Of a stretch of DNA of 64,000 nt, positions 3,001 through 18,675 are shown one piece after another. This stretch comes from Reclinomonas americana ATCC 50394 (Eukaryota). The notes beneath the pieces were generated by a model that saw only the letters and a program-made list of their open reading frames with translations, did no database searches and had not been told where the DNA came from. Both the position numbers and the translations under genes were made by a program. The stretch lies in assembly GCA_048213135.1 (NCBI GenBank), contig PS015010.1, positions 1,364,001 through 1,428,000 on the forward strand, read 5' to 3'. How positions within the stretch are numbered: position 1 is the first letter of the stretch; each line of letters opens with the position of its first letter.

Positions 3001-6000
3001 TGAAATCAGCCTGGCAATCTTCGGCTACACCATCAGGATGCGTGAGATAATAAACATCTTTCAATCCTGACAACACTTCGGGATCTTCAAGCTGGTAGTC
3101 CGTATCCTCGTTTTCCAGCTTCCACGGCATTTCAAGTTCGCATTGCAGCACTATTTCTTTTATAGAAGCATAAGTCAGTGGTTCATTACCTATTCCCTGG
3201 TATTTCTTATAATATACACCACTGCCGGTAAAGCCGAATTTTTTATTGAAGAGTGCACGGAAAAGATCTCTTCTTGCTTCCAGCGGCACTTTAATACTGC
3301 CATATTGTTTTTCGTATATACTCATGAAGTCTTTGTACTCCCAGCATTTCTTATTGCACACATCCGGTGTAAAGCCGCATTGAACCAGGTATATATCACT
3401 GATCTGCAGGAATGTGTAGGAAGTTGTGTACATATTATTAAAGAACGCCGTGAACAGGTAAGTACACTTGATCTCATCCAGGTCCATACCTCCTCTCGGG
3501 TATCTTACAAAAAACTCTTTCAGTGTTTTCTGTAACTGATCACAGGTAAATTCAACTGGTTCTACCGGGCACATATTCAGTTTGAAACCACAGTGTTCCC
3601 AGTAAATTTTCTGTATCTCTTCATACGTATAAGCAGTGTGGTAGGTCAGATTGAAGTAATCCCTGAAGCACTGGCACCTGTCCACCGTACTTGTACAAAT
3701 GAACTTATTCACCATTGACAGCAGTTTCCGGCAATCCCAGTCGATCTCGCCATTACATCCGGGGAATGGCGTGCCGCACACGGATTCAAACAGGGCCTTT
3801 ATCTCTTCATAAGTATATTTTGTACCCAGGGCTTTATTGATGAAGTCTTCCATTTTACCGCGGCAATCCTCTATACCAAGCGTACCGGGGTATTTCTCAT
3901 AAAACTGCCTGATGAGTTCAGACAATTGCTTGCAGGAATACGGCAATGTGCAAAGCTGGTTAAGATCGGGCACGCACACTTCCTTACCCCTGTACATCTG
4001 GTACAGGGCTTTTATTTCATCCCATGAATAAGTTGTATTCATCTGGCTATTGAACCAGTTCACAAATCCATCGCGACATTCGGTATAAGGACCGTCGGAC
4101 ATCATCTGCGCCTTGTAATCATTGTACAGAATGGTCAGCAGGTGCGAATTGGGAAAACTGCACACATCAAGGCTGCACCATGGATTACAGAGATAAGTAT
4201 ACTTTTCCTGTATTTCCTCGTACGTATAATTTGTGCCCATACGGGAATTAAAATATTCTGCAAATCTTGTACGGCAATCACCCTCTTCCCAAACCCGGTA
4301 ACCATACGTATGATAATAGTCAGTGATCACACTCTGTATATTTTCACAATCCATTTTAGGACGGCATACTACCGGCATAGAGCCGCAAGCCTGTACAAAT
4401 TGCTGCATCCATCCTTCATACGTGAGACTCAGACCTGTCTGTCCGTTCATGAACAGGACAAAATTCTCCCTGCACTCGTTCCCTTCCAGCGGCGGATTGG
4501 TAGCGTAATAAGCTGCAAGCAATTCATTCAAATGAGCACAACTCAGGGTTTGATCATTGGCACAGGCAATACCAAACGCTACATATTCCGGCCACAGTTT
4601 ATTGAATCCCGTCTTATAGTTGGCATAATCCTGGAATGCCTGGTTGATGGCCACCTCCTGTGCTGTAGCGGGATTGTTTATTGGTGCCGAAACGCCTCTC
4701 TCCTGCTGGAATTGCTGGCGGATCTGGTTGTAATCGGCACAGGTGATACAGGTTTTTGAAGAGTCAATATTGGCAGTACCGCGGCACTGGAAGATGGCCG
4801 GCAGTTTTATCGGCGCTGTAAGGAAATTACAATTAGGATTGGTGCCCGTATAACCTGTAGTACACATTTCCACAAGCATATTCAGCGTATCCGCACTGAT
4901 GATCGTTCCCTGCATATAACGCAGGTAGTTACTGAAGGTCATGGAACCTCCGGATTGCTGCCATTTGGTTTTGAAGTAATTGATACGTTCACAGGCGCAG
5001 GGTTCCGGAACAGTTACCAGCGGTACAGAGACTGTTGGAGGTGCTACATTATATGCTTTAGGGAAATCAACGAGTTCAGGATAGCAGAATGCATCGATGG
5101 AGATTCCCCTGAAATTAAGATAGTAAGTGATGAGTGCAGGGAAATTCCGCACCGGGATACCGGCGATGGTTGTTCCGTTGGGATCATCCTGGATGAATAT
5201 AGCGGGTTGGTTATCGGGCAGGCTGGCGGCGCCAAAAGGATGCCCCATATAATCCACACCGGGTTTACAGATCCTCACCAGGTATTTGGAAAGCCATGCG
5301 GAATCCTGTGCCCATTGGAAAGGACTGTTAGATGCTATCGTTTCAACTCCCGGGCACCTGCGCAGGCGTGACATCCAGGTGGCACTATTGGAGCGGCAGA
5401 TACTGTCTGCTTCCGCAGCCGCGGCGGCTGTATAATCTCCGGGTTGGTTACTGTTCACCAAGCCACCCAGGTCGGAAGCATTACCGATAATATAGGGCGC
5501 AGTATTTTGCAACCGTACAAAACGTTCCTGGTAATTGTAACCATTGCTACTGCTGAATATGCTATAATTAATACTTGTGCAGTTGTTGCTCAGGTAACGA
5601 CTGATGAGTATGTTACGGTAAGAGAGGTAAAGAGCTTTAAAATTCTTCCATACCATATCCATATCCGCTGCGCAATGCCCCACTCCTGAAGGAGGAAGAT
5701 TGGTAAGGCTGTTATAGCAACTGAGGAACGCTGCTGTAGGTGTGAAACAGTTATTACCGTTCGGCGGTATGGTTGAACTGGCTTGCATTTCTTTATGGCA
5801 GAACACAGACAGTTGTGCCAGGCGCCACATGCCCATGGACACTGAATTGGGGCACGAAGGACTGGCCGCCGCGTAATTGGAAATGATCGCGTTGCGCATT
5901 TCTGTATAGTAAGGCGATCCTGTTCCCAGCATGATGAAGAAAGAATCCTTTTGCATAAAGTAATCCGCCGCCACAACAGGATTGGTTGTGGAAGGATGGA

Positions 6001-8761
6001 TGAACTGCCGGGTCACCGCCTGGCTCCAGGTTTCGGTATTCTGCACTCTTCCTGCAAAACGGTATGTGCCTTTAAGATTGGCTTCCGCGAAACGGAGTTT
6101 GCAGAACTCAGGATGATAATAGAGCAGGTTGGTTGCATAGCTGTCCTGGAAATCATCAGCAAAAGCTTCAACAGTCATCGCCGCCGCCTGTGCCTGGGGT
6201 AATACAACAATTCCATACTGGTTCGTATAGCCCGCGGCTGGCGCAGTGGTATTGTTAACGGCGTCATAAGTTACGGGTAAACGGTATGGAGCTATGGTAG
6301 GCGGTGTTGACGTAACCGTATTGGCCCGTGAAGGATTGAATATGTTGAACGGCTGCATCTGGTAGCCGGGATGATCAACATCATTGGTACGGGCATACTG
6401 GCCAAATGGCGGCATCATATCCTGCAGCATGATCTCTTTAATGCTGGTGAGTTCATCAATGGTTTCACCAGTATTGTCATCACATATTTCATCACAATTG
6501 GCTTTGGCTGCCTGGTAAGCCGCCTGTATCTGCGGCATCATTACCAGTATGACAGAATCAGGTAATCCTGATTCAAGCCGGAAACGGTTGATAAAATCCG
6601 TTTCGCTGCCCAGTTTCTGGGTACACTGGGTACAGGTTACATAGCAGTTCTGCTGACTGAGTGCCAGTTGATATTGCTGGAGAATAAACGACTGCCGTGT
6701 TTTACAGGTATCATTCCTCAGGTATACTTCTTCCCGGTACCAGTCCCTGGCAGCTGTACTCAGTTTCAGTTCCTTCACTACTGTATAGGCACCTTCATCA
6801 AGCCATACACTGAACGTTGTATCGAGCAGTGGCGATTGGGTTCCCGCACATGAAGTAAGGTATTGACCAAGGTTGAAGTTCTTTTTGATAACCGGGTTAC
6901 TGAACCCCGCGATCACTTTATCGGAACAATCAGGAATGATACTTACATTCAGTTCATACAGGCAATCGAAGCAGAACTCCGTTCCTGTACACAACATCAT
7001 CTTCAGTTTTTCCGGGGACAGGTAATAGTTGAACTGGAAGTTTCCAGGCTTGGCCACCATCAACGACTTGGATGATATAATAGAATTGCCCTGAACACTG
7101 TTGGTTTCGGGATCAATCAGTTGTCGTGTAATCGTTTTTAATGCATTGGTGTAGGATGGAATGGAATGCAGGTTTTGCGGAGTTGTTCCGGCGAGCGCGG
7201 TTGCTACTGTTTTGCCTCTCATATCTATATAGCTCACACTGTATTGTCCATTGGCATCCCTTACCCAGGTCTTGCTGTAATGAGAAGCATAGCCGGCATC
7301 CGTTCCAAACAAGGCATCAAGGTCATCCTGGTCAGCGCTTTCATAAAAATATTTGGTCTCTTTTCCGCTGTTCACCTGGAAAAGCGGCCCAATACCGCCC
7401 TGCGCATCAATACGTCCCGTACCATCGCTGGTATAGCGTGTTTCAGTATAAGGATATCCTTCCGCATCGGGTAAATATTTATTATGCCCATTGTTGATTT
7501 CCGGATTATTACCTGAATAATACTGGGATGCGCTTCCCGTGGCTGTTGCCAGGAGTTTTGCAGTCAGCTTATTACATGCACTCTGGGTACCATCCAGTTT
7601 GTCGTATACCGTTTTCGCATTTCTTGCGTCATCAAACTGGTTGAAGTTTTTGGTAAACGAGATAATGGTATTCAATGTGGGTGCCGGCAACACCGAAATC
7701 ACCGGCCGGCCCTGGTAGTCATAAAATGATTCCGCCACAACCGTTGCACGGCTGACGTTATCTTTAGCGACCGTCTGCCTTCCCCGAAGAGACCCATCGT
7801 AATATTGTATCACGGTTTTCCTTTTCCCATCTTCAGCGAATGTAGTGGTGGCCTGCCAGTTGAGATTTTCTTCATGCCCTGCAGTGCGGGGCAGGTAAGC
7901 GAGGCCATTATCGGACAGGTAGAACCAACTGCCTTCCACGCGCTGGCCATTCACTTTAATCTGCGCCATTCTCACCCTGGCATACAAGCGCCCGTTATCT
8001 TCGTACAATAATGGTATATAATAGAAATTATTGCTGGTAGTGATCCTGGTGGCGTTATTATCAAATATTTTAGCCATATCCGGCGAACCACCGGTCATAT
8101 ATTCACCAACTGCGCTTTCATCTATCCATGCCCATTCCACATCGTATTCGGTCTGGAAATTAGCCGGCACATTCCATCTTACTTTCCATTCATCGGCAAA
8201 AAGGCTGTCGGTAACAATACCGCTGAGTGTTGTACCGCAGTTAAAGCCCCAGTCGCGGAGCGAAATGATCTCGTTAACCAGTTTAAGGTTTTTCAGCACA
8301 TCCCAGGACACATCGGAATTAATAGCCATGATCTTTACATATACCTTTACCGCATCCCTGAATTCATAGGAAGAGATGGCACCCGACACTTGCGCTGCCC
8401 CATTCTTATATACCAGCGAAAGGGTTTTGGTAACTGTACTGCTGGCTCCTGAAGCGTCTTCCGCGTTAATCTCCAGGTCGAAACTAACCGTAAAGTCGGA
8501 ACTGATGAAGGCACTGCTTTCTTCATCTATCATCAGCCGTATGGCATTCTTTACATAGTAGGTACGTTCGATAGCTCCCGTTACATTCTTATAGGCCTCG
8601 AAATTAAGATCGCTTGTATACACCTGGTTGGCTACCACCAGGTCGCCATTTTTGCCAAAAAGTGTTTGCCGGTATTCGGGATCATTTCCCGCGAATAAAG
8701 GTTTGCTGATCAGCAGCAAAAAAATGGCGGCGAGTATAAGGCGTTTCCCTGCTAAAAACAT
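1..8761 (-). CDS. Giant RHS/YD-repeat protein (polymorphic toxin-like), >2920 aa, 3' end outside window
   Basis: Hand translation from ATG at 8761 gives signal-like MFLAGKRLILAAIFLLLISKPLFA. DUF6443-like TVIQYYDGSLRGRQTVAKD...YDYQGRP lies at ~7690-7830 and YD repeats (YRYNTLGQV, FWYDRLGRL, YDVLGRITE) at ~900-2600. The RHS core NDYYPFGMMMPERK...YRYGFNGKEND...DYGMRMYDPRLGKFLSVDP...PYQFAGNKPIWCVDLDGL is at 158-418. All sampled segments share one frame. Absence from the ORF track fits having no stop inside the window. Confidence 0.92.
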   Translation of the reverse strand, partial: MFLAGKRLILAAIFLLLISKPLFAGNDPEYRQTLFGKNGDLVVANQVYTSDLNFEAYKNVTGAIERTYYVKNAIRLMIDEESSAFISSDFTVSFDLEINAEDASGASSTVTKTLSLVYKNGAAQVSGAISSYEFRDAVKVYVKIMAINSDVSWDVLKNLKLVNEIISLRDWGFNCGTTLSGIVTDSLFADEWKVRWNVPANFQTEYDVEWAWIDESAVGEYMTGGSPDMAKIFDNNATRITTSNNFYYIPLLYEDNGRLYARVRMAQIKVNGQRVEGSWFYLSDNGLAYLPRTAGHEENLNWQATTTFAEDGKRKTVIQYYDGSLRGRQTVAKDNVSRATVVAESFYDYQGRPVISVLPAPTLNTIISFTKNFNQFDDARNAKTVYDKLDGTQSACNKLTAKLLATATGSASQYYSGNNPEINNGHNKYLPDAEGYPYTETRYTSDGTGRIDAQGGIGPLFQVNSGKETKYFYESADQDDLDALFGTDAGYASHYSKTWVRDANGQYSVSYIDMRGKTVATALAGTTPQNLHSIPSYTNALKTITRQLIDPETNSVQGNSIISSKSLMVAKPGNFQFNYYLSPEKLKMMLCTGTEFCFDCLYELNVSIIPDCSDKVIAGFSNPVIKKNFNLGQYLTSCAGTQSPLLDTTFSVWLDEGAYTVVKELKLSTAARDWYREEVYLRNDTCKTRQSFILQQYQLALSQQNCYVTCTQCTQKLGSETDFINRFRLESGLPDSVILVMMPQIQAAYQAAKANCDEICDDNTGETIDELTSIKEIMLQDMMPPFGQYARTNDVDHPGYQMQPFNIFNPSRANTVTSTPPTIAPYRLPVTYDAVNNTTAPAAGYTNQYGIVVLPQAQAAAMTVEAFADDFQDSYATNLLYYHPEFCKLRFAEANLKGTYRFAGRVQNTETWSQAVTRQFIHPSTTNPVVAADYFMQKDSFFIMLGTGSPYYTEMRNAIISNYAAASPSCPNSVSMGMWRLAQLSVFCHKEMQASSTIPPNGNNCFTPTAAFLSCYNSLTNLPPSGVGHCAADMDMVWKNFKALYLSYRNILISRYLSNNCTSINYSIFSSSNGYNYQERFVRLQNTAPYIIGNASDLGGLVNSNQPGDYTAAAAAEADSICRSNSATWMSRLRRCPGVETIASNSPFQWAQDSAWLSKYLVRICKPGVDYMGHPFGAASLPDNQPAIFIQDDPNGTTIAGIPVRNFPALITYYLNFRGISIDAFCYPELVDFPKAYNVAPPTVSVPLVTVPEPCACERINYFKTKWQQSGGSMTFSNYLRYMQGTIISADTLNMLVEMCTTGYTGTNPNCNFLTAPIKLPAIFQCRGTANIDSSKTCITCADYNQIRQQFQQERGVSAPINNPATAQEVAINQAFQDYANYKTGFNKLWPEYVAFGIACANDQTLSCAHLNELLAAYYATNPPLEGNECRENFVLFMNGQTGLSLTYEGWMQQFVQACGSMPVVCRPKMDCENIQSVITDYYHTYGYRVWEEGDCRTRFAEYFNSRMGTNYTYEEIQEKYTYLCNPWCSLDVCSFPNSHLLTILYNDYKAQMMSDGPYTECRDGFVNWFNSQMNTTYSWDEIKALYQMYRGKEVCVPDLNQLCTLPYSCKQLSELIRQFYEKYPGTLGIEDCRGKMEDFINKALGTKYTYEEIKALFESVCGTPFPGCNGEIDWDCRKLLSMVNKFICTSTVDRCQCFRDYFNLTYHTAYTYEEIQKIYWEHCGFKLNMCPVEPVEFTCDQLQKTLKEFFVRYPRGGMDLDEIKCTYLFTAFFNNMYTTSYTFLQISDIYLVQCGFTPDVCNKKCWEYKDFMSIYEKQYGSIKVPLEARRDLFRALFNKKFGFTGSGVYYKKYQGIGNEPLTYASIKEIVLQCELEMPWKLENEDTDYQLEDPEVLSGLKDVYYLTHPDGVAEDCQADFMSWFNRIMQVGYTYDKMIALYNYVLGEGSGYICNPAVLNKRVLPSGGAAISIPVNYPLLLCGLNEVLLPPPAVDTSTCKDPWQLSVSDANTKYDLYIDSLRRNFDLAWYKKCTNAKTLESFTVTYEKAEHHYTLYYYDQTGLLVRTVPPEGVDDRRADGPFLSSVKAARNTSAATPVRPSHTLPTDYRYNTLGQVVQQKTPDGGLSKFWYDRLGRLVVSQNAQQATEVKYSYTRYDVLGRITEVGQKPQSTAMTQAISRDETQLNNWVTGGSSREQITRTVYDVSYFNGDNLLQPEQLSQRNLRNRVSYTQVFDVQPTGNNYVGTHRAATYYSYDIHGNVDTLLQDYGSSQYYSNIMNTSDNRYKKIAYNYDLISGKVNMVTYQPGYYSSSAQAWVSPADQFYHRYAYDAENKLTDVYTSHDSLVWERDASYAYYRHGPLSRIVLGQQQVQGLDYSYTLQGWIKGVNTSAIGDGLHDMGADGIPGGVNGYVARDAFGYALHYFQNETQGQFDYKPIDNSVKPFANPAAAGFGFVGLYNGNISAMSVNIGKFTTTSAQEGALLYTYRYDQLNRLTKMSTYKGLNIATNSWNVSATNAYREDITYDANGNIKTYKRNGADGNLMDNLTYGYNIQSGKLVNNRLRHVKDAVSSTYSADDVDNQPDDNYGYDAIGNMTKDDKEDISGITWTVYGKIKSLNKGSGSVGYVISYTYDAAGNRISKTVDGLTTWYVKDASGNIMAVYEKRSNLNSGHLTQSEVHLYGSTRIGVFNVNRDVQNPPAGSGLTVFERGKKFFELTNHLSNVLVTVSDRKFQVDDGEYTWVYPPCAPPPPGGPPPQCDPIYVKVSNTPDGIADYYTADVINANDYYPFGMMMPERKFAASNQYRYGFNGKENDNELKGNGNVQDYGMRMYDPRLGKFLSVDPLTQSYPWYTPYQFAGNKPIWCVDLDGLEEYYTTNGTLIGKYGTSNEQRIVSDDFVKTQTLKAVQTNISAGTVDDINTNS
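2900..4745 (-). repeat. About nine degenerate ~55-70 aa Cys-rich helical protein repeats inside the RHS ORF
   Basis: Recurrent C..L...F/Y......C...F..(W/Y/F)FN....T.Y(T/S)YEEI...Y...CG...C, e.g. CRTRFAEYFNSRMGTNYTYEEIQEKY, CRDGFVNWFNSQMNTTYSWDEIKALY, CRGKMEDFINKALGTKYTYEEIKALFESVCG, CFRDYFNLTYHTAYTYEEIQKIYWEHCG. Confidence 0.85.
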
Positions 8762-8825: not shown

Positions 8826-9626
8826 CTAATTCCTGGCATTATAAACTTTATATTCTTTAAATTTTTCCACCGGTTTGTATTCCCCATCTTCTTCCCAGAT
8901 AAATACATTCTCACTGTAGTCGGCTTCCGATAAATGATCAAAACGATAGTTGTACAACTCAATGCTGAGCGTTTTTCTCCTGGGCGTATTACGCAGCAGG
9001 CGAAGCGACACGTCCGGCTCATCCTGGTCGGTTAGTCCCAGCCCGGGTTGCTGGTATTCGTATTCGATCTTTGTGATCACCGATCTTTCCAGGTCGAACT
9101 CAATGATAAAATGATTGTACTGGGCGAGGTCGTTATTATCTTTCCTGACCAGTTTGATATAGCCCGTACCACCGGTATCTGTAGAGCCGCTGGCTTCCGT
9201 TTTTACCCACACATCGTAATACTCGCTGTATACCTCCAGCAGGCTGTCCAGTATCTCACGGGTAGGCATATACGATCCTGCATTATTTACCGGCGGGTCG
9301 GATATAACCATCATCTGGTCTTTGTGAAAAACCGTAACCAGGAAGGAGTCATTCTGCAGGTATTCTACATCGCCCAGCGTATACCGGGCTTTCTTCCCGT
9401 TAAGGGTGTATACCCCTTTCACCACTTCACTTGTAAAATCGCTGTATGCCGTATCGGTAAAGTACCGGTACTTGGCATCAAACGTAACATAGGGTAAACT
9501 ATCATACGTCTTATATAACTTCAGGGCGGCAGTCCGGGCTTCTTGTATTGTAGACTGCGCTATGGTTGTACCCCAGGAAAAAAGCAGCAGTACCAGGATG
9601 GTTGATATTTTTTGATTGGCTTTCAT
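8826..9626 (-). CDS. Secreted hypothetical protein, LolA-like fold suspected (266 aa)
   Basis: Signal peptide ending ..TIA-Q, then a helix followed by beta-strands (VTFDAKYRY..EVVKGVYTLNGKKARYTLGDVEYLQNDSFLVTVFHKDQMMVIS) resembling LolA-family proteins. The fold call is inference. Confidence 0.6.
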   Translation of the reverse strand: MKANQKISTILVLLLFSWGTTIAQSTIQEARTAALKLYKTYDSLPYVTFDAKYRYFTDTAYSDFTSEVVKGVYTLNGKKARYTLGDVEYLQNDSFLVTVFHKDQMMVISDPPVNNAGSYMPTREILDSLLEVYSEYYDVWVKTEASGSTDTGGTGYIKLVRKDNNDLAQYNHFIIEFDLERSVITKIEYEYQQPGLGLTDQDEPDVSLRLLRNTPRRKTLSIELYNYRFDHLSEADYSENVFIWEEDGEYKPVEKFKEYKVYNARN

Positions 9627-9661: not shown

Positions 9662-12600
9662 TTATTGGTCAACCGCTTTTTGCAGATGACTCCTGGTTTC
9701 TTTGATCGTTTTCACTCCTTTAAGTGTTTCTTTTTTTACACGGGCCAGTGTACCGTCATCATCATATTCGTAGAATGTGCTGTAGTTATTTTCATCCAGC
9801 TCGCTCATCAGGCGCAGGTTTTGCGGATGATAAACAAAGCTCTTCATATTGGCATTGAATGGATGAATACGAACATCATCAAACCAGGCCTGGGCAGATC
9901 CGGTATTCATAAGGTCTACCGCTATACGGGTGGCCGTTGCAGGAATGTCAAACACCCCTTCATACCGCTGCCATCCTTCTATTATACTTCCGGCCGGGGT
10001 AAACTCACTGACCGTGGAGCCTCCGGTGTAGCTGATCCGTATTTTATTATTGGTATAAGTACTGCATTTGCAATCGTTACCACCTACACGCACCCAGGCA
10101 CTGACAACCATTTTACGCCCCTGTACCAGGGAAAATGTATCAGTAAGCGCATTCCCGCGAACATTAACGGAGTCGGTTTTGGTACACCAGCTGGTCGTGG
10201 TCACTACTGTACCACTGGCATCACCTGTCCTGTCTGGCATATACACCTGCGCATTAGGGACCGGCTGCCAGTTCGCAGGATCTGAAGGTGTTTTCCATGC
10301 CAGGCGGGCAAAGTGATCCCCTTTATTATCGAAGAATTCCATCCTCACTTTATATAGTTGTCCTGCAGTAAGTGTTACTGCTGCCGTGGTGGTATTGGCT
10401 CCCCAGTTACAATCCCAGCGATAGGCCAATTGCTGCGTGGAACCATTGACATCGATGTAAAGTTTATAGCCGTCATCGGCGCTGACAAGGAAACTGTAAC
10501 TGCCGGTAACAAGCGGTTGTACATAACCTTCCCAGCGTACTGCAAACCTGTCTCCGTTGACCCCGCCAGGCAAACCAAAATTGGTTCCGAAGTTGATCTG
10601 CTCATTCAGCCGTACAGCCGCCGGAGATCCATTGAGCGCGCTGTTGGCATTATTAGCCGCCGTATTGCAGGTACCGAAAAGACCTACTGAAAAATTGTAG
10701 TACTGACCCCTGAAGCCGGTACCTCTCGGTGTTACGGCAGTGGTTGAGTAACTGGATGAGTCTACCTTGATACGAACGCTGTATGGCTTATCCAATGTGG
10801 AGGCAGACACTACGGGAGCATTGAAACTGTATGTCTGCCCCCCGTTAAGTTTCAGACTTTTTTTACCGGTATGCTTTTGACTGCCATCAAGGTAGGCTTG
10901 TATATTATTCATATTGACATGCCGCCTGGGTGTACAGGTTTCGGAACAGGAATTGGTCTGGTAATCGTAATCTTCAAATCCGTCAAACATGGATTCCATG
11001 TAACGGGAGTTACCGGTAACCGCAACCGGCATTTGCTGGTTATAACCGTAAAGACCAGAGTTGTACCTGTCGAGCGGGTCTTTATTTTCTATCTCGTATC
11101 CCTTACGGTTATACTGAGTAATGGCACTGTTCCACACCCATACATCTGCTGCCGCATTATTTCTGCTGACATACTGCGCCACTGACGGTGCAAAGGACCA
11201 GAAACTCTTGTAGTTGATAATTGTACCTCCACTGCGCTGGTCAACCGGGCTGCCATCAATCACTGTATTCTCTTTTTTCTCTCCGTAATAAACGAACGTG
11301 GTATCAATTCTCCAATTGCCCCATATACCTTCCACGTAAGGATTTACAGATTTGCGCTGCGTAAACAGCGAGCGGCACTCCAGGATGCGCTGATCCACGA
11401 TATCACAAAGGATCAGTTTATTAAGCAGTGTATCATTTACGGGGATAGACGCGTTAGCCACAGGTCCGTCACCTCCCTTCAGTGCGCCAAAAGGCAGGGC
11501 GGCAAAATGACAACTGTAGCTGCGGTTCGTATCTCCGCATACATAATAGTATACGTCAAGCTGGGGCGCCCGGTAAGAAGTGGTGTTGGAGTAAAAACAC
11601 TGGAACGCCTGTATCCATTTCTTTTTATCAATACTGATATCCCCATCTGCTCCCGAAGAGCGTGTGATCATGGCCCTCAGACCAACAGACTGACCTATTG
11701 AAGCGGAGGTAAACATCTCTCTTACGGAGCTGGCTGTTATGGGTACCCGCCTGTCGGTACTCGATAAAGTATAGCTGACAGCGCTGCTGGGTGCCGTTTC
11801 CGCAATAACGCCCGACCAGTTGTTCCAGTCATGGAGTGTTTTTCCTGCATCGATAAAGATATTTCTCCATTGTGCCTGCTGTTGAGACAGGGTTCCTGTT
11901 GGCCAGTTGGTCTTCATTCTGAGCAGTGAAATATTGTTGATCATTACCGGGCTGCTGGTATTGCCATCGCGGCTGCGGTGCGAAATGGAGTTGTTATGCA
12001 GACCAGGATGGAAGTTGTTGTTGGCTGCATAATCGGTATGTGCCCACAGATTAAGCCTGCCCTGGTATACGACAGCACCGGAAGGCAGCGGGTTAGCATT
12101 GAGGTTAAACTGCATCCACTGATCGAAATTCTGTGTAGTGGAGTGGTCTCCGGGCCTGCGGGTAGCATAGCGTCTTACATTGAGTGAAGACTGGTTTTCC
12201 TGGAACCCGAAAGAACCATAATCGATTCCATGCGAGATGTTGGTTGTAGCCCATACAGCCTGTGATTTAACTGAAGGATAAGCCGCACACTTGATACGGG
12301 CATATACATTTCTTTTTATAATGGAATCAAACAGGAAGAAAGCATTGTCTACCCGCCAGTGATCTTTAAAGGTGGCGGCTGTTGTTTGCAGGATATTGGT
12401 AGCGTCTGTAAATTCCAGCTGGCCGGTCGCCGCATTAACGGGATTACTGAGGGATAAAACAGACCCCAGTGAAGTACCGCCCATATTACGTTTACCTGAA
12501 CGAACGATACGCATTTTTACATTGACTGCCGAGTAAGGATTGCCATTCGCATCAAGGAATACCCACTGAGGTGTTAGACTGGATGCTTTACCGGTGTATA

Positions 12601-15600
12601 CGGCCCATATTTTCTTGGCCGTGTTTTTGGGTATTGGTAAGGGGTCACAGGGGAGGTTGCTTCCCGGACCCGCGGACTGCTGAGATTCTACCATGATCTC
12701 ATCCCCGCTTTCCAGCAGGTTCATATCAACAGGGGAACCGGCATCCAGCTTTCCATTACGGAATGTAACGCTGTTGTAGGCTACATCAATATTTTTGTAG
12801 GCCATGCCCATACCGCTATAGGCCCAGTGTGCTGGGTAAGTGAAACTATAAACCGGTTTGTTATGCTCATTGTTGGTCCGGACAAGCAGTGGATCCCCGG
12901 TCTCCGCGTCGAATACCAGGTTCTTTGTACTTACCATGCTTCCTTTGTCCACAGCTACGATACTGTCGAGCATAGAATAGTGATTCACCACTTTCAGTAC
13001 GGCCGATGAACGGTAAATATTGGATTCCTTAACAACCGGTTTCCAGGTTGTGGGAATAGGAATAGGGATGAATACGCCGGAGATAACGTCGATATTGAAA
13101 TTGATATTGGTCGTGATGGTTTGCTGGTTATGCTCCCTGAAATCGGTCATCAGCTCTATTTCCCTGCCAATAATACTCTGCTGTACCTTTCCGTCGGCGC
13201 CTGCAATAACCGGGAACTGGTGATTCAGTTTGAAATCATTATCCCCGGTCTTAATCACACTGTAAAAATTCTCGGTATAGGCAATTGGGTCATTGAGGTT
13301 GTTGGGAGAATACGTAGCCTGTTTTCTCAATTTGCCATTCATATCATTCAGGTCTATTTTAAAACCCTGGCTCAGTGCCACTGCCGTTTTAAGGTTTGCT
13401 TTCAGCAGTTTATCCAGCGCGCCGGATTCGTACCTGTCCTCAGCATCGTATTCTGTCAGGGGGGTGTAAGCCGAAACGGTTGGAAATTCTCTTGTTGTAT
13501 AAAAATCAGAAACAGAAATACCCGGATTATTTTTTACGGTATCGCGATGTATACTGCGGGTCTCCACTCTGCTGTAACCTACCATGGCCGAAGGGTACAG
13601 CATTTCTGCCAGTGGTGTTTCCATTACCCGGTAATCATAATCGGCTTTAGGTGTTTTATTATAAAACTCCATTCCCTGGCGATGGGTATTTTCTTCCGCA
13701 CCAAGCGCGGGTTCCCAACTGGCAACGCCGCTGCTGATGGTTTCCAGCACACCATTCACGAGTTCTTTTTTGGTATAAAAATATTCCTGGCCATAGGTAG
13801 CGTTCAGCATACCGTCGCTGGCACCGGGATTACTGCGGGTCATTTTGTCCCAGTTGTCATTGATCACTACTTTCTTTACCCGGAGACCTCCTCCCAGTTT
13901 TTTACTGTCAGGATTGGTCAGGCGCACAAAGCTTTTTGCCGGTTCGGTATACTTGCACTTTCCTTCCTGTATCATCAGTTTCATCCCCCCGTTAAATACT
14001 TCTTTAAAGGAATGGAATAATCCGCCCAATGCTTTTACTACTGCTTTCAATCCGCTCTCTTCGCTTACATCATAACCCGGATAGGCTTTAGAAGGCAGGC
14101 TGGACTTCAGGAACTGCAGGGAGTAATGTACCATTGGGGAATAACCCGACAACAGCCTTTTTACCTTCAGGTATATTGTTTTCTTAGCAGGGTCGCTGGC
14201 AACGAGCCCCCATCCTTCTACCTGGGCATACACAGGTATCAACTCGTAACCACTGCCCATTTTATCCTGTGGCACCTGCACCGCCAGTTTCATATACACC
14301 TGGTTGCTTTTTGGCATATTGGCGAGGTACCAGTTCTTCACCTGGTCTGTAATCGCAGCGCCTGTTGCTGTTATAGCCCTGGGAACTTTAACATAGATAT
14401 AGTCATAATTGGAAGTAACTCCATCATATAATTTATTGGAAGTGTACTGAGAAGCCCCTGGAGCGTCTGTTGTCCCGAAACCGGCGATGGTCATCATATT
14501 GGCCGCTTTCCTGTCCTGTACATAAGCATAGTCATCAGATTCGTATTCCACATTAATAGCAGAGCCGGAAGGCAGTATTACCTGGTTCATAGTCCAGGCT
14601 TTTACATACTCATTTGTTTTTACCGGGTCCTGGTCAGTATACGGAAAATCGGAATTGGTAAGTGAACCGGATGGCGGATCAGCCTTATAGTTGCCCCACC
14701 TGTCGTTGGCCGTAAAACTGTAATCGGGGTTCTTTGCCGCATCGGTTGGATAATTGAAACGGTAATAGTTCCTTTTTACTTTATTATTGCCATTATACGT
14801 GAAATATATCCTGCGCAATGTGAGTTTACCGTAACCGCTTAATGATCCCGGGGCATTCTTACACAGCGAATAATCGTATTCGAAAACAACCGTCTTTACC
14901 GGTTTGGGGTTGACTGGATTTTTCAGCAACTCTCCTTTCGTGAACAGGGATATCTTAGATAACCGGTAAGCGCCAAAACCCGCATCAGGTGTACCATTTT
15001 CATCAATAACAGACCGGGCATCCTTCCTGTCGTTACGTACATAAAAACGGGCCACCATGTTTTTGGATTCAATGGAATAGAGATACCACATTTCCCTTTC
15101 GCCATATACATAATGGGCTTTATCATCATTTTTATCGGTCTTCAATCCTTCATTCAGTGAAGCGGTATTCGTGCCAGCAGGTGTACGCCAGCGGAGGTTA
15201 ACATCCGATTTTGAATAATTGAATTTTACCGCATCGCCCATGTCATCTTCGGTAATTCCATCTCCTTTTGTATCTACGTAATTCGGTGACAGTAAAGCGG
15301 TGAGCAGGTAAGAGTGGGCATATGGTGGCATTTCCTGTTTCTCCACGAAGCCCTCTTTTCCTTCATTATTGCTGCCCGCCATATTATCCACGCCCGGAGT
15401 GTAATTGACTGTCGGGTTATTGGTACCGTTACCTCCGGCACTGCCTTTTTTGTTGAATGTAACATCTACCTGTTTGGTATTGTATACAGGGATATCATAA
15501 ATATAGCGCCGTCCGTCCTGCATGGTTACATCGATCTCGGATACGTGGTGCGATTTACGTAACCCTGCAGGGCCGCCGTCGAGCCTTTTCATCTGTTGCC

Positions 15601-17485
15601 AGCGTCTGTCATTGCAACCAAATAATACCTGGCTGGAGTCTTCCGACAGCCTGGCAAAAGTGATCTGTTTGTTAAGCCCTACCCTGTCTGCTTCCGACGC
15701 ATCAAGAAAAGATATAACCTGCGTGCGTTTATCGCGTTTTTTAAGTGTTGCCAGGGTATTGATCTGAAGATCGGGTTTACGCTGCAGCATATCGGAATAA
15801 CGGATGAAGGAAGGCACCAGCGTTGGTGAACCATTGCCTGTATTGGTCATTTTCAGGCGCACCAGGTCTTCTCCTCCTATCGCGTCCTGGTAAGCGAGAT
15901 CCGGAATAGCTTTCTCGCCCGGATTTTTAAAATATACCGACTGGTAAGCACCGGCGGATTCTTTGTATTCCATCGCTTTTTTAGCGAGGTTTCCTTTTTC
16001 CCATCCACCGGAAGATGATGGCGTAAGCACCACATTGGCATTGATGGCGCCATGGCCGTAGCCACCGGCACCCAACTCAAAGCCCAGGTGGGCGGATGTA
16101 CCTTTATTTTCGAGATAAGAATCCTGCATAAAACCGAGATCTCCCCGGTACGCCCGGAAAGAACCGCCGGTACCTTCGCCGGTGATACTGTATACGTCGT
16201 ACGTGTATACCGGAACAGCAATAGCCGGCGTGCCCGGCGTATATACACCATCGTTGAGGCGGTTAAAATCCATCAGGGCATTTTTATCGTTTTGCCCTTT
16301 CTGGAGATACAGCATACCGTACGCGGGCTGGCTGATCTTAATATCTTCTTCTTTGATCCACCGGCGGGTATAATAGCCCCCCAGGCGAAGGTGACCAAAT
16401 ATGCCCCAGCCTGAAGCGCCAAAACCAAGATCGAGATCATAATTCTCGCTCGATGTCCTGCTGCGCATAGAGGGTGTAAAAGACGGGTAGGCAAAACTGA
16501 TGCTCGTACCCATTGTGGGGTTCACCTGCACATCCCCCTTGGCAATGGAGTACTGGCTTTTATCAGCGCTGTTCATATTCTTTACTTCCGCAGAAATGTG
16601 CAGGGCTTGTAACCCTTGCCGGGAGTGCGTTCCAATGCTTGCAGACAAAGAGCCGTTCAGTCCTTTCGTATTGTTATCACCAATTGAAATGTTGAATGTA
16701 GAGCTTCCGCCCGACTGTGAGTTAGCGCTCAGTTTCCAGCCGAAGCTTAATGGGGCTGTTTTAGCATCCCCCGACTTGCCGCCAATGCTGATCGCCGGAT
16801 TAACACCCGCTTCAAGGCCGATACCCCGCATGCTGTTATGAAATATACCCCCATCGATACCTATACCCAGCGCACCGCCGAATATTTCAATACGTCCGCC
16901 TACATTAACACCAAATGTTTTATCGGGTTTGGTGAACTGGCTTTTGGTAATAATATCGCTGCCATTAAAATCATCTGGCAAACCCCGCATATTGCGCATG
17001 ATGGTACCTGGGTTGATGTTCCATCCCAAGCCAACCCAGCTGGCTTCCTGGTCCATGGAAATACCACTGTTGTAAAAGATGTTAACCGGGTAACCGCCTA
17101 CATCGAGCAGGGGTATATTATAAGAGAAATCACCGGAAAAAGGATCGACCAGGTTATCCGCACCTACCGGCTTAAAAGCCGACATTTCGGGCTGGGAAGG
17201 GCCGCCGATGAATGTTTTTTTCGGTGTCTTTTTACCGGAAGCCTTCACCGGCATTCCTGCAGGCCGTGCAGGTCTTGTGCCATCGCCGGGGCCACCAGGC
17301 ATTAAAGCGTTTAATTTCTTTACAGGTGAATATGCCGGAGCATAAGCATTGCGTATCCTGTTTTCCCTGTTCACTGCAGGTGCATAATTATTTCCGTATA
17401 CCAGGGAACAAAACCCGGGCAGGAAGAAAATATACACAAGTGAAAATGCGATTTTCCTGGAATGTGCTGATAAAAACAATAACAT
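9662..17485 (-). CDS. 2607-aa YD-shell protein (TcB/SpvB-like N-terminus) with PA14 and other binding domains, no RHS core
   Basis: Signal peptide; LVDPFSGDFSYNIPLLDVGGYPVNIFYNSG..ASWVGLGWNINPG; WYLYSIES; INVEYESDDY; PA14 (FAVRWEGYVQPLVTGSYSFLVSADDGYKLYI..YKVRMEFFDNKG); ends DENNYSTFYEYDDDGTLARVKKET. Confidence 0.85.
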   Translation of the reverse strand: MLLFLSAHSRKIAFSLVYIFFLPGFCSLVYGNNYAPAVNRENRIRNAYAPAYSPVKKLNALMPGGPGDGTRPARPAGMPVKASGKKTPKKTFIGGPSQPEMSAFKPVGADNLVDPFSGDFSYNIPLLDVGGYPVNIFYNSGISMDQEASWVGLGWNINPGTIMRNMRGLPDDFNGSDIITKSQFTKPDKTFGVNVGGRIEIFGGALGIGIDGGIFHNSMRGIGLEAGVNPAISIGGKSGDAKTAPLSFGWKLSANSQSGGSSTFNISIGDNNTKGLNGSLSASIGTHSRQGLQALHISAEVKNMNSADKSQYSIAKGDVQVNPTMGTSISFAYPSFTPSMRSRTSSENYDLDLGFGASGWGIFGHLRLGGYYTRRWIKEEDIKISQPAYGMLYLQKGQNDKNALMDFNRLNDGVYTPGTPAIAVPVYTYDVYSITGEGTGGSFRAYRGDLGFMQDSYLENKGTSAHLGFELGAGGYGHGAINANVVLTPSSSGGWEKGNLAKKAMEYKESAGAYQSVYFKNPGEKAIPDLAYQDAIGGEDLVRLKMTNTGNGSPTLVPSFIRYSDMLQRKPDLQINTLATLKKRDKRTQVISFLDASEADRVGLNKQITFARLSEDSSQVLFGCNDRRWQQMKRLDGGPAGLRKSHHVSEIDVTMQDGRRYIYDIPVYNTKQVDVTFNKKGSAGGNGTNNPTVNYTPGVDNMAGSNNEGKEGFVEKQEMPPYAHSYLLTALLSPNYVDTKGDGITEDDMGDAVKFNYSKSDVNLRWRTPAGTNTASLNEGLKTDKNDDKAHYVYGEREMWYLYSIESKNMVARFYVRNDRKDARSVIDENGTPDAGFGAYRLSKISLFTKGELLKNPVNPKPVKTVVFEYDYSLCKNAPGSLSGYGKLTLRRIYFTYNGNNKVKRNYYRFNYPTDAAKNPDYSFTANDRWGNYKADPPSGSLTNSDFPYTDQDPVKTNEYVKAWTMNQVILPSGSAINVEYESDDYAYVQDRKAANMMTIAGFGTTDAPGASQYTSNKLYDGVTSNYDYIYVKVPRAITATGAAITDQVKNWYLANMPKSNQVYMKLAVQVPQDKMGSGYELIPVYAQVEGWGLVASDPAKKTIYLKVKRLLSGYSPMVHYSLQFLKSSLPSKAYPGYDVSEESGLKAVVKALGGLFHSFKEVFNGGMKLMIQEGKCKYTEPAKSFVRLTNPDSKKLGGGLRVKKVVINDNWDKMTRSNPGASDGMLNATYGQEYFYTKKELVNGVLETISSGVASWEPALGAEENTHRQGMEFYNKTPKADYDYRVMETPLAEMLYPSAMVGYSRVETRSIHRDTVKNNPGISVSDFYTTREFPTVSAYTPLTEYDAEDRYESGALDKLLKANLKTAVALSQGFKIDLNDMNGKLRKQATYSPNNLNDPIAYTENFYSVIKTGDNDFKLNHQFPVIAGADGKVQQSIIGREIELMTDFREHNQQTITTNINFNIDVISGVFIPIPIPTTWKPVVKESNIYRSSAVLKVVNHYSMLDSIVAVDKGSMVSTKNLVFDAETGDPLLVRTNNEHNKPVYSFTYPAHWAYSGMGMAYKNIDVAYNSVTFRNGKLDAGSPVDMNLLESGDEIMVESQQSAGPGSNLPCDPLPIPKNTAKKIWAVYTGKASSLTPQWVFLDANGNPYSAVNVKMRIVRSGKRNMGGTSLGSVLSLSNPVNAATGQLEFTDATNILQTTAATFKDHWRVDNAFFLFDSIIKRNVYARIKCAAYPSVKSQAVWATTNISHGIDYGSFGFQENQSSLNVRRYATRRPGDHSTTQNFDQWMQFNLNANPLPSGAVVYQGRLNLWAHTDYAANNNFHPGLHNNSISHRSRDGNTSSPVMINNISLLRMKTNWPTGTLSQQQAQWRNIFIDAGKTLHDWNNWSGVIAETAPSSAVSYTLSSTDRRVPITASSVREMFTSASIGQSVGLRAMITRSSGADGDISIDKKKWIQAFQCFYSNTTSYRAPQLDVYYYVCGDTNRSYSCHFAALPFGALKGGDGPVANASIPVNDTLLNKLILCDIVDQRILECRSLFTQRKSVNPYVEGIWGNWRIDTTFVYYGEKKENTVIDGSPVDQRSGGTIINYKSFWSFAPSVAQYVSRNNAAADVWVWNSAITQYNRKGYEIENKDPLDRYNSGLYGYNQQMPVAVTGNSRYMESMFDGFEDYDYQTNSCSETCTPRRHVNMNNIQAYLDGSQKHTGKKSLKLNGGQTYSFNAPVVSASTLDKPYSVRIKVDSSSYSTTAVTPRGTGFRGQYYNFSVGLFGTCNTAANNANSALNGSPAAVRLNEQINFGTNFGLPGGVNGDRFAVRWEGYVQPLVTGSYSFLVSADDGYKLYIDVNGSTQQLAYRWDCNWGANTTTAAVTLTAGQLYKVRMEFFDNKGDHFARLAWKTPSDPANWQPVPNAQVYMPDRTGDASGTVVTTTSWCTKTDSVNVRGNALTDTFSLVQGRKMVVSAWVRVGGNDCKCSTYTNNKIRISYTGGSTVSEFTPAGSIIEGWQRYEGVFDIPATATRIAVDLMNTGSAQAWFDDVRIHPFNANMKSFVYHPQNLRLMSELDENNYSTFYEYDDDGTLARVKKETLKGVKTIKETRSHLQKAVDQ

Positions 17486-17522: not shown

Positions 17523-18620
17523 TTATTGATCGCCGAAATTTTTGATCCTGAACAACACACTGTTCCGCTCCCCTGCTGAATTGATGATCTCCGCTTTGTA
17601 TGTATTCTCTTCGGTTAATGGCAATATTTTTTTCAGGTTGAACTGCAACTGGTTCTCTCCCCTCACTATTTTCACTCCCCTGATCTGGCGGGTTTGGCGG
17701 CCGTCTGAAAGATCGGTAAGCACAATATTCACGGAAGAGTCGCGAGAACGGTTGAAATAAGAAAGTTTGAGAAAGCCGTTCGGGGCGATACCGAGTTCAG
17801 GTTCAGGTTTCATTTTCATGAAAGGTGCTCCCATGACAACCGGGCTGATAATGCTGTCTTTCTTTATTTTGAATACCCACACTTCACTTTTACCGGCATA
17901 ATTCCTGTCGTCTCTTGCTATGATCTGCCATGCATACCATTTTTCTTTTTCAAAAGAAGATGCCGAGGCGGGATAATTCATCATATTCGTATACAGCATA
18001 CCGTCATTATAGAAAGGCATATTTTCCTGTAAGGCTTCCGGAGCTTTTTGTCCTTCCTTTATTTCGGTCACCATCATTTCATAACGAAGGTTTCCAAACA
18101 TGCCGGCCGGCAATGGCGGCGTCCAGGAAAACTGGGTGGGCGCATTCTCAAGTACGGAACTGTCGGCAGGGAATATGAGCATAGGCGGCGTTAAAGGCTC
18201 CACATCAAACTGGATACACTCCTCCGCCAGCCGAATCTCCTTCAACCCGGTGGCATTTAAGGCATAACAGGCCGTATACATTCCTGCCGGAAGCAATCCC
18301 TGTAACCGGGAATCCATCCCGGATACCAGGTAATTGTACTGTACCGGTTCCAGCATGCCCACATTCAGTTGCCGGGCGCCCTGGGAAAGCATGAACTGTC
18401 CCGATGTGGCGGTCATCACTTCCTGGCCCGTCTGCCGGTCGCGTATCACCAGTTCAAGCCGGCAATCATAAGGCGCATTGCTGCTGTTCACAACGAGCAC
18501 ATTCCACAGCTGGTTTTTCTGTATCATTCCAACAGCGGCGATATTTGGCTGCAAGGTTACCTGCGCCTTCGCGGCAGCCAGGGAACAGCAACTGAAAAGC
18601 AAGAGCAATAATTTTTTCAT
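17523..18620 (-). CDS. Secreted FN3/Ig-like domain protein (~365 aa), weakly T9SS-CTD-like C-terminus
   Basis: Likely start MKKLLLLLFSCCSLAAAKAQ at 18620 (track start 18647). FN3-like PPMLIFPAD..TQFSWTPP..YEMMVTEI..YAWQIIA..SEVWVF; C-terminal beta-sandwich. Confidence 0.7.
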   Translation of the reverse strand: MKKLLLLLFSCCSLAAAKAQVTLQPNIAAVGMIQKNQLWNVLVVNSSNAPYDCRLELVIRDRQTGQEVMTATSGQFMLSQGARQLNVGMLEPVQYNYLVSGMDSRLQGLLPAGMYTACYALNATGLKEIRLAEECIQFDVEPLTPPMLIFPADSSVLENAPTQFSWTPPLPAGMFGNLRYEMMVTEIKEGQKAPEALQENMPFYNDGMLYTNMMNYPASASSFEKEKWYAWQIIARDDRNYAGKSEVWVFKIKKDSIISPVVMGAPFMKMKPEPELGIAPNGFLKLSYFNRSRDSSVNIVLTDLSDGRQTRQIRGVKIVRGENQLQFNLKKILPLTEENTYKAEIINSAGERNSVLFRIKNFGDQ

Positions 18621-18675
18621 TGATATATTTTTATTGTTCCGGATCATGCTTATTTTTTTCGGGCAGCCCTCTTAT

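Follow-up and report, generated by a model that had tools for sequence, protein, structure and literature searches.

We report that a 64,000-nucleotide stretch of bacterial DNA (the window), taken from the assembly deposited for Reclinomonas americana ATCC 50394 (GCA_048213135.1, contig PS015010.1, positions 1,364,001 to 1,428,000), carries an operon whose two largest genes appear to let a soil-and-water bacterium build one toxin-carrying capsule from two separately exported giant proteins. Judging from its sequence, its homologues and a structural model, protein A (2607 residues; 9662..17485, minus strand, as for all operon features given below in window coordinates) makes up the first half of an RHS/YD shell, lacks a core and bears inserted domains. 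Protein B has 3137 residues, of which the first 2920 are encoded at 2..8761 and the rest outside the window, up to contig position 1363348. We consider it very likely that A and B form a heterodimer in which the DUF6443 strands of B continue the sheet of A, and we favour, with moderate confidence, the wider proposal of a two-chain, Sec-exported antibacterial RHS cocoon of Bacteroidota that is independent of TcA and carries a membrane barrel of its own. With its YD repeats, its core with a cleavage site and its hypervariable tips, A/B is an RHS polymorphic toxin system. The initial annotation had proposed a split RHS cocoon parallel to TcB and TcC; new relative to it are the barrel-like insert, three accessory genes, the frequent splitting of A and the finding that the pair is the giant form of a common arrangement.

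Protein A is a predicted half-shell

Near its N-terminus protein A carries VDPFSGDFSYNIPL (residues 113-126), IFYNSG (136-141) and WVGLGW (150-155), which lie in the SpvB/TcB-like first shell strands (residues 113-165; 16991..17149) delimited by aligning the model to the N-terminal domain of SpvB (SpvB-N) and to TcdB1. The protein had been said to start with this motif, which holds for the motifs at residues 113-155 but not for the literal start: a signal-peptide-like N-terminus and about 60 residues that are poorly conserved in the conservation profile precede VDPFSGDFSYNIPL, so the mature protein does not begin at it. At the other end, STFYEYDDDGTLARVK (residues 2569-2584) is separated from the stop by 23 residues. 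A terminal motif, ELDENNY..YEYD, lies at most 80 residues from the end in 109 of the 110 pattern-matching representatives (144 examined, the other 34 being fragments, earlier-stopping forms or pattern misses), a position that, on these sequence patterns, is more than chance in the family. Pattern searches for an RHS-core motif drew a blank in protein A, among the 120 homologues closest to it and among another 144 representatives of 50%-identity clusters, and NCBIfam matched Rhs_assc_core on protein B but gave nothing for protein A, in agreement with the proposal that A stops after a YD hairpin without core or toxin. PA14 is the only Pfam family above its cut-off in A. Because Pfam SpvB misses protein A (one small homologue matched below cut-off), the likeness to SpvB and TcB comes from the predicted structure. 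The family comprises 3452 near-full-length homologues and 4765 representatives at 50% identity (E <= 0.001), with members in cultured Chitinophaga, Niastella and Flavihumibacter strains.

We modelled residues 90-1289 of A with AlphaFold2 (60 sequences; predicted local distance difference test score (pLDDT) 75, predicted template-modelling score (pTM) 0.73). Five Foldseek matches fell below E 1e-3, all with low template-modelling scores, namely mosquito SGS1 at the top (E 8e-7) and TcB-TcC entries. Full structural alignment gave Z 10-12 against Rhs shells, Z 9.7 against SpvB-N (6p0x; root-mean-square deviation (rmsd) 4.2, 240 residues aligned) and Z 9.2 against residues 14-782 of TcdB1 (rmsd 5.2, 352 aligned). 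Since only 220-350 of the 1200 residues align, the modelled region consists mostly of inserted domains on a thin shell scaffold. The segment around residues 995-1195, collinear with the propeller gate of TcB, was modelled as long strands and helices; no beta-propeller family stood out in structure searches of this model, though it may still contain a propeller. No shell or barrel relative came up in the PDB when it was searched by sequence with A or with profiles of A, of the N-terminal part of B (B-N) and of the 814-residue protein encoded upstream; a search with protein B matched two Rhs entries. According to this model, A is a core-less RHS/YD half-shell with an SpvB-like start.

Gene order, split points and fusions link A to B

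For the counts of flanking genes we took, out of 286 confirmed stretches, the 80 best GTDB loci, each count covering only loci with enough flank. The start of B lies within about 3 kb of the end of A in all 77 loci with at least 2.5 kb of flank, and in this assembly each of the seven DUF6443 genes comes after a YD gene that has no core. Moreover, the A profile matches all five small core-less YD proteins (1061-1397 residues) collinearly at 28-81 bits, so A is the giant form of a common Bacteroidota pair. The five small split pairs (L099, L101, L103, L105 and L107) each stand behind a gene of about 500 residues with coiled-coil and barrel-like parts; in three of them a short gene lies between the halves or immediately ahead of them, in one case with a glutathione-peroxidase-family match.

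The division of A into chains is itself movable. Thirty loci hold two A-like open reading frames (ORFs); four, with frameshift-like breaks off the module boundary, were set aside, and two heavily fragmented loci were not counted. In 26 loci A is split at the boundary defined by residues 1712 and 2036, that is, around the variable insert at residues 1713-2035 (11381..12349), and the second part begins before module II (residues 2036-2230; 10796..11380), which contains YD-type strands and the first half of a domain resembling a carbohydrate-binding module (CBM). A hydrophobic N-terminus is found on 25 of the 26 second parts, compared with 4% of 300 random internal windows. Module III (residues 2440-2607; 9662..10168), with the invariant terminal hairpins that we propose as the docking edge for B, occupies a gene of its own in other lineages and in one locus lies upstream of A; one stand-alone module III protein has a weak Pfam match to CBM_4_9. 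In some lineages (L142, L144, L148 and L150) module III ends proteins of 1300-1900 residues, the fully scanned example of which carries PKD, fn3, VWA and galactose-binding-like domains. These lineages have extra large signal-peptide genes between A and the module III gene, and a lipoprotein-like gene of about 200 residues before A.

Single-chain proteins join the same parts in the expected order. P0267 (2556 residues) combines an SpvB-like start, modules II and III, DUF6443 (residues 1463-1559, E 9e-12) and an RHS core, and the module III region of A is collinear with its residues 1185-1423 (hhalign probability 97.7). Module III and an RHS core share a chain in 17 of the 21 proteins of our fused-form search, one of them named Ignavibacteriaceae, and in eight of the 21 a DUF6443 motif follows module III after 48-57 residues. 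Weak module II matches, DUF6443 and a core are also combined in two more single-chain forms, one of them with Ntox23. No full-length A+B fusion was found among 142 candidates of 4564-5000 residues, a weak search because such a fusion would measure about 5700 residues, beyond the range covered. Complex prediction with A residues 2036-2607 and B residues 290-700, run without supplied alignments, returned a score of 0.22 (mark 0.34), which we take neither for nor against the pairing.

Several observations weigh against a single shell of this kind. The modelled shell region of A ends at residue 1289, with residues 1290-2035 outside the model. The fused proteins are only remotely related, and a direct comparison of the B-N alignment with P0267 gave a probability of 0.6; as B-N does not match P0267, the link runs through Pfam DUF6443. 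In addition, the gene for a LolA3-family protein, which separates A from B in 69 of 78 loci, is missing there in eight of the 78. The proposed split cocoon is nonetheless supported by gene order, by the fusions of A-type hairpin, DUF6443 and core, by the movable splits and by the alignments to TcdB1 and Rhs shells, from which we infer physical association.

A barrel-like insert interrupts the start of the spiral

Residues 188-487 of A (16025..16924) are modelled as about twelve long, Gly-rich amphipathic strands resembling a transmembrane beta-barrel, and they interrupt the SpvB-like domain, which is the start of the beta-spiral. In the first structural search, outer-membrane barrels were among the matches to model residues 93-401. 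Folded alone, residues 165-500 (72 sequences, pLDDT 78, pTM 0.66) gave twelve long hairpin strands whose best matches were CymA (Z 9.9, rmsd 3.3, 168 aligned), KdgM (Z 9.4), OmpG (9.4), AIDA-I (9.1) and NalP (8.9). Membrane beta-barrels made up the first 44 of the 50 listed matches, and the barrel matches spanned Z 8-10 over 135-168 residues at 4-12% identity. The strands form an even set, long, antiparallel and alternating, in which the apolar/polar alternation is strict over about ten strands and is kept at 23-46% identity in most rows of the alignment. The alignment-averaged apolar face was at least +1.0, a threshold chosen after the data were seen, for 9 of the 11 long strands in the insert and for 3 of 10 outside it, and insert strands differ from shell strands in glycine (15.5% versus 5%), charged (12% versus 24%) and aromatic residues (9% versus 19%). 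Strands rich in Gly, Ser, Thr and Asn and poor in aromatics recall the stems of pore-forming toxins. Given the two-chain shell, these model-based matches suggest that the insert is probably a membrane beta-barrel.

The insert has its best fold matches among the 12- to 14-stranded monomeric barrels (CymA, KdgM, OmpG and the autotransporters) and, like them, has turns on one side that are short and conserved, opposite loops that vary. Unlike them, it is internal to a protein of about 2600 residues rather than C-terminal, is richer in glycine and is discontinuous, with a 96-residue excursion before its last hairpin.

The leading alternative keeps the same two-chain cocoon and regards the insert as a soluble curved sheet, acting as a lid or as a receptor- or lipid-binding module, with the tip entering through receptors of the target; we judge this possible but unlikely. 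It draws on the points that count against a pore. The barrel matches are modest (Z 8-10, rmsd 3.3-5), scores of about 6.5 are also reached by curved sheets from soluble proteins, and Foldseek with the isolated insert found no match under E 1e-3; the predicted barrel may be closed, with its apolar face outward, and may sit over the shell opening. The insert is present in 83 of the 92 ORFs with an A-type N-terminus and absent from the other nine, mainly the small, intermediate and fused forms. Since neither the small split pairs nor any of the 21 proteins from the search for fused forms contain it, the wider family works without the insert, and for the insert-less small forms entry through such receptors must apply. 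Against a non-pore role stand the strict alternation conserved over about ten strands and the fact that nearly all of the best structural matches are transmembrane barrels.

If the insert is a membrane barrel, its loops bear on which membrane it enters. The turns on the shell side are of invariant length (standard deviation (sd) 0.2-1.0), and four of the six distal loops vary (sd 2-8.6, up to about 40 residues). By analogy, this asymmetry fits an ordinary outer-membrane protein, with the shell held in the producer's periplasm, and a target membrane is not easily crossed by distal loops that are long and polar. On the other side stand the separate barrel gene of the operon, the internal position of the insert, its few aromatics (9% versus 14% in the 814-residue protein's C-terminal region, which is not a like-for-like comparison), the likeness of its strands to pore-forming toxin stems and the surface-binding domains on A. 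Between the two we lean slightly, and tentatively, towards the outer membrane of the target, with anchoring in the producer's own outer membrane only a little less likely.

The rest of conserved module I (residues 488-1712; 12350..16024), delimited by the conservation profile, by hydrophobicity and, to residue 1289, by the model, contains shell strands, an alpha/beta domain at about residues 995-1195 and a hydrophobic hairpin at about residues 1457-1485. The conserved hydrophobic hairpin (also placed at about residues 1450-1485; 13031-13138) and an amphipathic helical stretch at about residues 1117-1175 (13961-14137) may be further membrane-contacting parts.

Protein B supplies the core and a variable tip

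Protein B consists of a signal peptide, DUF6443, a 1340-residue Cys-rich insert, a YD shell, an RHS core and a tip. DUF6443 (residues 305-473; 7343..7849; Pfam 32.3 bits against a cut-off of 27.8) corresponds to the first shell strands of B. The insert, with 56 cysteines in residues 701-2030, belongs to no known family and includes, at about residues 1407-1960 (2882..4543), seven Cys-bearing repeats of about 65 residues that match no Pfam family. The repeats recur in 40 B homologues, at one to seven copies, and also at the tail end of a split A (L027); such modules therefore shuffle between the halves.

The RHS-associated core (residues 2784-2868; 158..412) matches TIGR03696 with 46 bits against a cut-off of 32.5 (E 5e-12); its PxxxxDxxG site is present, and the expected self-cleavage site, PIWCVDLDG, ends at residue 2867. 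The downstream RHS gene had been held to supply the core. The core is indeed in B, which is not directly adjacent, as a 266-residue LolA3-family gene intervenes, and which extends beyond the window. A tip of about 270 residues, encoded mostly outside the window, follows the core; its Atlas features, at 0.91-0.94 to C39-like clusters, offer a likeness to C39 peptidases as a lead only.

Across the family the tips are hypervariable. Thirty tips, 28 from loci (one mis-parsed) and two from this assembly, fell into 27 groups, six complete B proteins being left out since the cleavage pattern missed them. Seven of 29 scanned tips had a Pfam match above cut-off, to Tox-PL1 amidase, REase-5, BURPS668-type deaminase, M15 D-Ala-D-Ala peptidase, glucosaminidase, MPTase3 and LysM families. 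The cell-wall enzymes among them, together with neighbouring immunity-like genes, suggest that the targets are bacteria. Almost all tips measure 184-309 residues, in line with the cargo of about 30 kDa of Tc cocoons.

A proposed delivery route independent of TcA

The cargo of Tc toxins leaves through the TcB propeller into the TcA channel, according to the available parts of PMC6868009; as this exit needs TcA and none was found here, another exit is needed in the A/B system. The statement that the window holds no TcA extends beyond it: a genome search found no match to the TcA domain PF18276 in this assembly, nor in two further genomes (G002 and G003), and the positive control (G001) was matched. 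In a sample of 401 genomes of the phylum, barrel-type A occurs in 26 and PF18276 in 16 (15 over cut-off); incomplete assemblies limit the negatives. With regard to a type VI secretion system (T6SS), operon proteins gave no Pfam or NCBIfam match to PAAR or VgrG, and TssC matched only on a small contig of the assembly (C7398). For the type IX secretion system (T9SS), neither NCBIfam nor Pfam matched a C-terminal sorting domain on A, on B or on 32 members of the family of the 374-residue protein encoded in the operon, whose C-terminus had, by eye, given the impression of one; SprA is encoded on the window's contig. The results for TcA support the view that the A/B system is TcA-independent.

How the cargo of signal-peptide RHS toxins exits, and how it crosses the target membrane, without a T6SS or TcA is an open question. 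In the sequence of events that we propose, all five proteins of the operon in the window would pass the inner membrane on signal peptides. A would begin the beta-spiral with its SpvB/TcB-like domain and end in an open, invariant hairpin, and the DUF6443 strands of B would then extend this sheet until the RHS core closes the shell, a joint step in which we have high confidence. By analogy with TcC and Rhs proteins, the core would cleave itself at DLDG and keep the tip of about 270 residues inside, while PA14, the CBM-like domain and other inserted domains may bind surfaces. The twelve-strand insert would, fairly probably if the shell is granted, act as a membrane beta-barrel at the N-terminal end of the shell and offer the tip an exit route in place of TcA. 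More speculatively, the 814-residue barrel, the 374-residue protein and LolA3 could serve export or assembly. In its most specific and least secure form, which we advance only tentatively, this would be an undescribed delivery machine, a cocoon of two to three exported chains whose barrel at the gate end punctures the outer membrane of a rival, replacing the TcA pentamer or T6SS, and whose export has a large outer-membrane barrel and a LolA-like chaperone dedicated to it.

Two other readings concern the pair as a whole. Protein A could be an independent secreted adhesin or scaffold that merely neighbours a toxin gene, with B completed otherwise or forming an open shell. A carries a PA14 domain (residues 2308-2401; 10283..10564; Pfam E 1.9e-14; PDB 6qdi and 6qe7), which is a movable insert found near residue 620 in other A homologues, as well as the CBM-like domain; homologues carry PKD and galactose-binding-like domains, and the LolA3 gene separates A from B. 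The fusions of module III, DUF6443 and core, the invariant coupling of the genes, the invariant terminal hairpin and the new signal peptides at split points nevertheless make this reading improbable. That A/B is a true Tc BC pair borrowing a TcA encoded elsewhere in the genome is very improbable, for although three genomes hold both barrel-type A and the TcA domain, these are always on other contigs, the overlap (two without the centre genome) is near the one or so expected by chance, and no TcA matched in 23 of the 26 barrel-type genomes, whose assemblies may be incomplete.

The preferred two-chain cocoon thus has several implications. A barrel-like domain fused into the shell is a concrete, testable answer to the exit of cargo without T6SS or TcA; DUF6443 gains a role as the junction at which a second chain joins the spiral; and the way in which a split of the TcB/TcC type can arise and move is illustrated by the forms with one fused chain, two chains and three chains.

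Relation to known systems

In TcB-TcC, two genes make one RHS shell, with an SpvB-like core-less first half and a second half that bears the core as well as a tip, variable and about 30 kDa in size, as set out in the available parts of PMC11067744 and PMC6868009. The A/B pair is predicted to resemble such cocoons (TcdB2-TccC3, YenB-YenC) in all of these respects, and the proposed parallel holds for the core-less half and its core-bearing partner and for the alignment to TcdB1. A/B differs in its larger size, about 5700 residues compared with a cocoon of about 250 kDa, its signal-peptide-like N-termini, its lack of dependence on TcA, the barrel-like insert, PA14, the 1340-residue insert of B, the immunity-like gene, the orphan tips and the variable split points. 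As the TcA feature was looked for and not found, A/B is not a member of the Tc toxins, though cocoon-like.

Zhang et al. (2012) described a 'TcdB/TcaC-like' pathway for export in Bacteroidetes, with signal peptide, SpvB, RHS repeats and a variable toxin (PMC3482391), and on the available portion of that article the broad class of A/B was already known. This portion defines the pathway by SpvB and an integrin-like propeller and describes no core-less separate half, barrel insert or accessory genes. The literature searched, which covered few subscription papers and no supplements, held no account of a two- or three-chain DUF6443 shell, of the barrel insert or of the accessory genes, and no paper on DUF6443.

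The common Bacteroidota pair, in which a core-less YD protein of 1.1-1.4 thousand residues (some with DUF5977) accompanies a DUF6443-RHS protein and of which this assembly has five, is homologous to and collinear with A/B, but is half the size, lacks the barrel insert and LolA3 and has a different upstream barrel-like gene of about 500 residues. The T6SS Rhs effectors (Tse15, RhsA, RhsP and Salmonella bongori Rhs) share with A/B the top shell alignments (Z 10-12), the core and the variable tip, but are single chains delivered by a T6SS, whereas A/B has signal peptides and no PAAR or VgrG match. SGS1, as presented in the available parts of PMC9935623, has a Tc-like shell with receptor domains and a membrane-active part of its own; it resembles A in these respects, the membrane-active part of A being the predicted N-terminal barrel, but is a eukaryotic single chain whose membrane part consists of C-terminal helices inside the shell.

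Accessory genes and genomic setting

The gene order, conserved in Bacteroidota, is 814-residue barrel-like protein, 374-residue Ig-like protein, A, LolA3, B and an immunity-like gene, with the five window genes spaced by 28-64 bp. A crude hydrophobicity test found a hydrophobic N-terminus on all five window proteins, and it is on this test that the description of both halves as signal-peptide-bearing stands.

The 814-residue signal-peptide protein (18676..21120) is, by inference from its sequence, a putative large outer-membrane beta-barrel with a coiled-coil insert and a C-terminal region of long amphipathic strands ending in Phe. Its gene precedes A in 41 of 42 loci. None of 32 family members had a Pfam match over cut-off, its Atlas neighbours are unnamed Bacteroidota proteins, and profile comparison showed no clear homology to the 500-residue upstream barrel-like proteins. 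The 374-residue signal-peptide protein (17523..18647), encoded ahead of A in 57 of 62 loci, probably consists of Ig-like beta-sandwich domains, as suggested by weak matches, among 32 members, to DUF928 in nine and to Ig_Rha78A_N in five. The 266-residue product of the gene at 8826..9626 is a LolA3-family periplasmic protein (NCBIfam NF053579, 97 bits against a cut-off of 83). In F. johnsoniae, the available parts of PMC11885536 report that lolA3 deletion leaves gliding and T9SS amylase secretion unaffected, so LolA3 is free to have a specialised role. A 238-residue signal-peptide gene begins 23 bp after B, and its product is likely, judged by position, to be a periplasmic immunity factor. Orphan core/tip ORFs, also recognised by position, are present nearby and after the second operon of this assembly.

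The assembly (108 Mb in 16441 contigs, treated as having introns) has as its largest contigs C1 and C2, the latter containing the window, which are Chitinophagaceae-like bacterial DNA; its bacterial contigs probably derive from a co-assembled bacterium. About 210 kb away on the same contig (C2:1558000-1596000) is a second complete five-gene operon, with a different, LysM-bearing tip and several orphan RHS cassettes downstream. A DNA match at C1:2039570 had no long RHS ORF around it, and a metagenome scan matched one locus. Beyond the left edge of the window, on the opposite strand (L005:5213-7938), an orphan RHS core/tip ORF and its 191-residue neighbour stand next to a gene that reads, from its sequence, as integrase-like. 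Finally, a LytTR response regulator at 21700-22446, divergent from the start of the operon, is a possible regulator.

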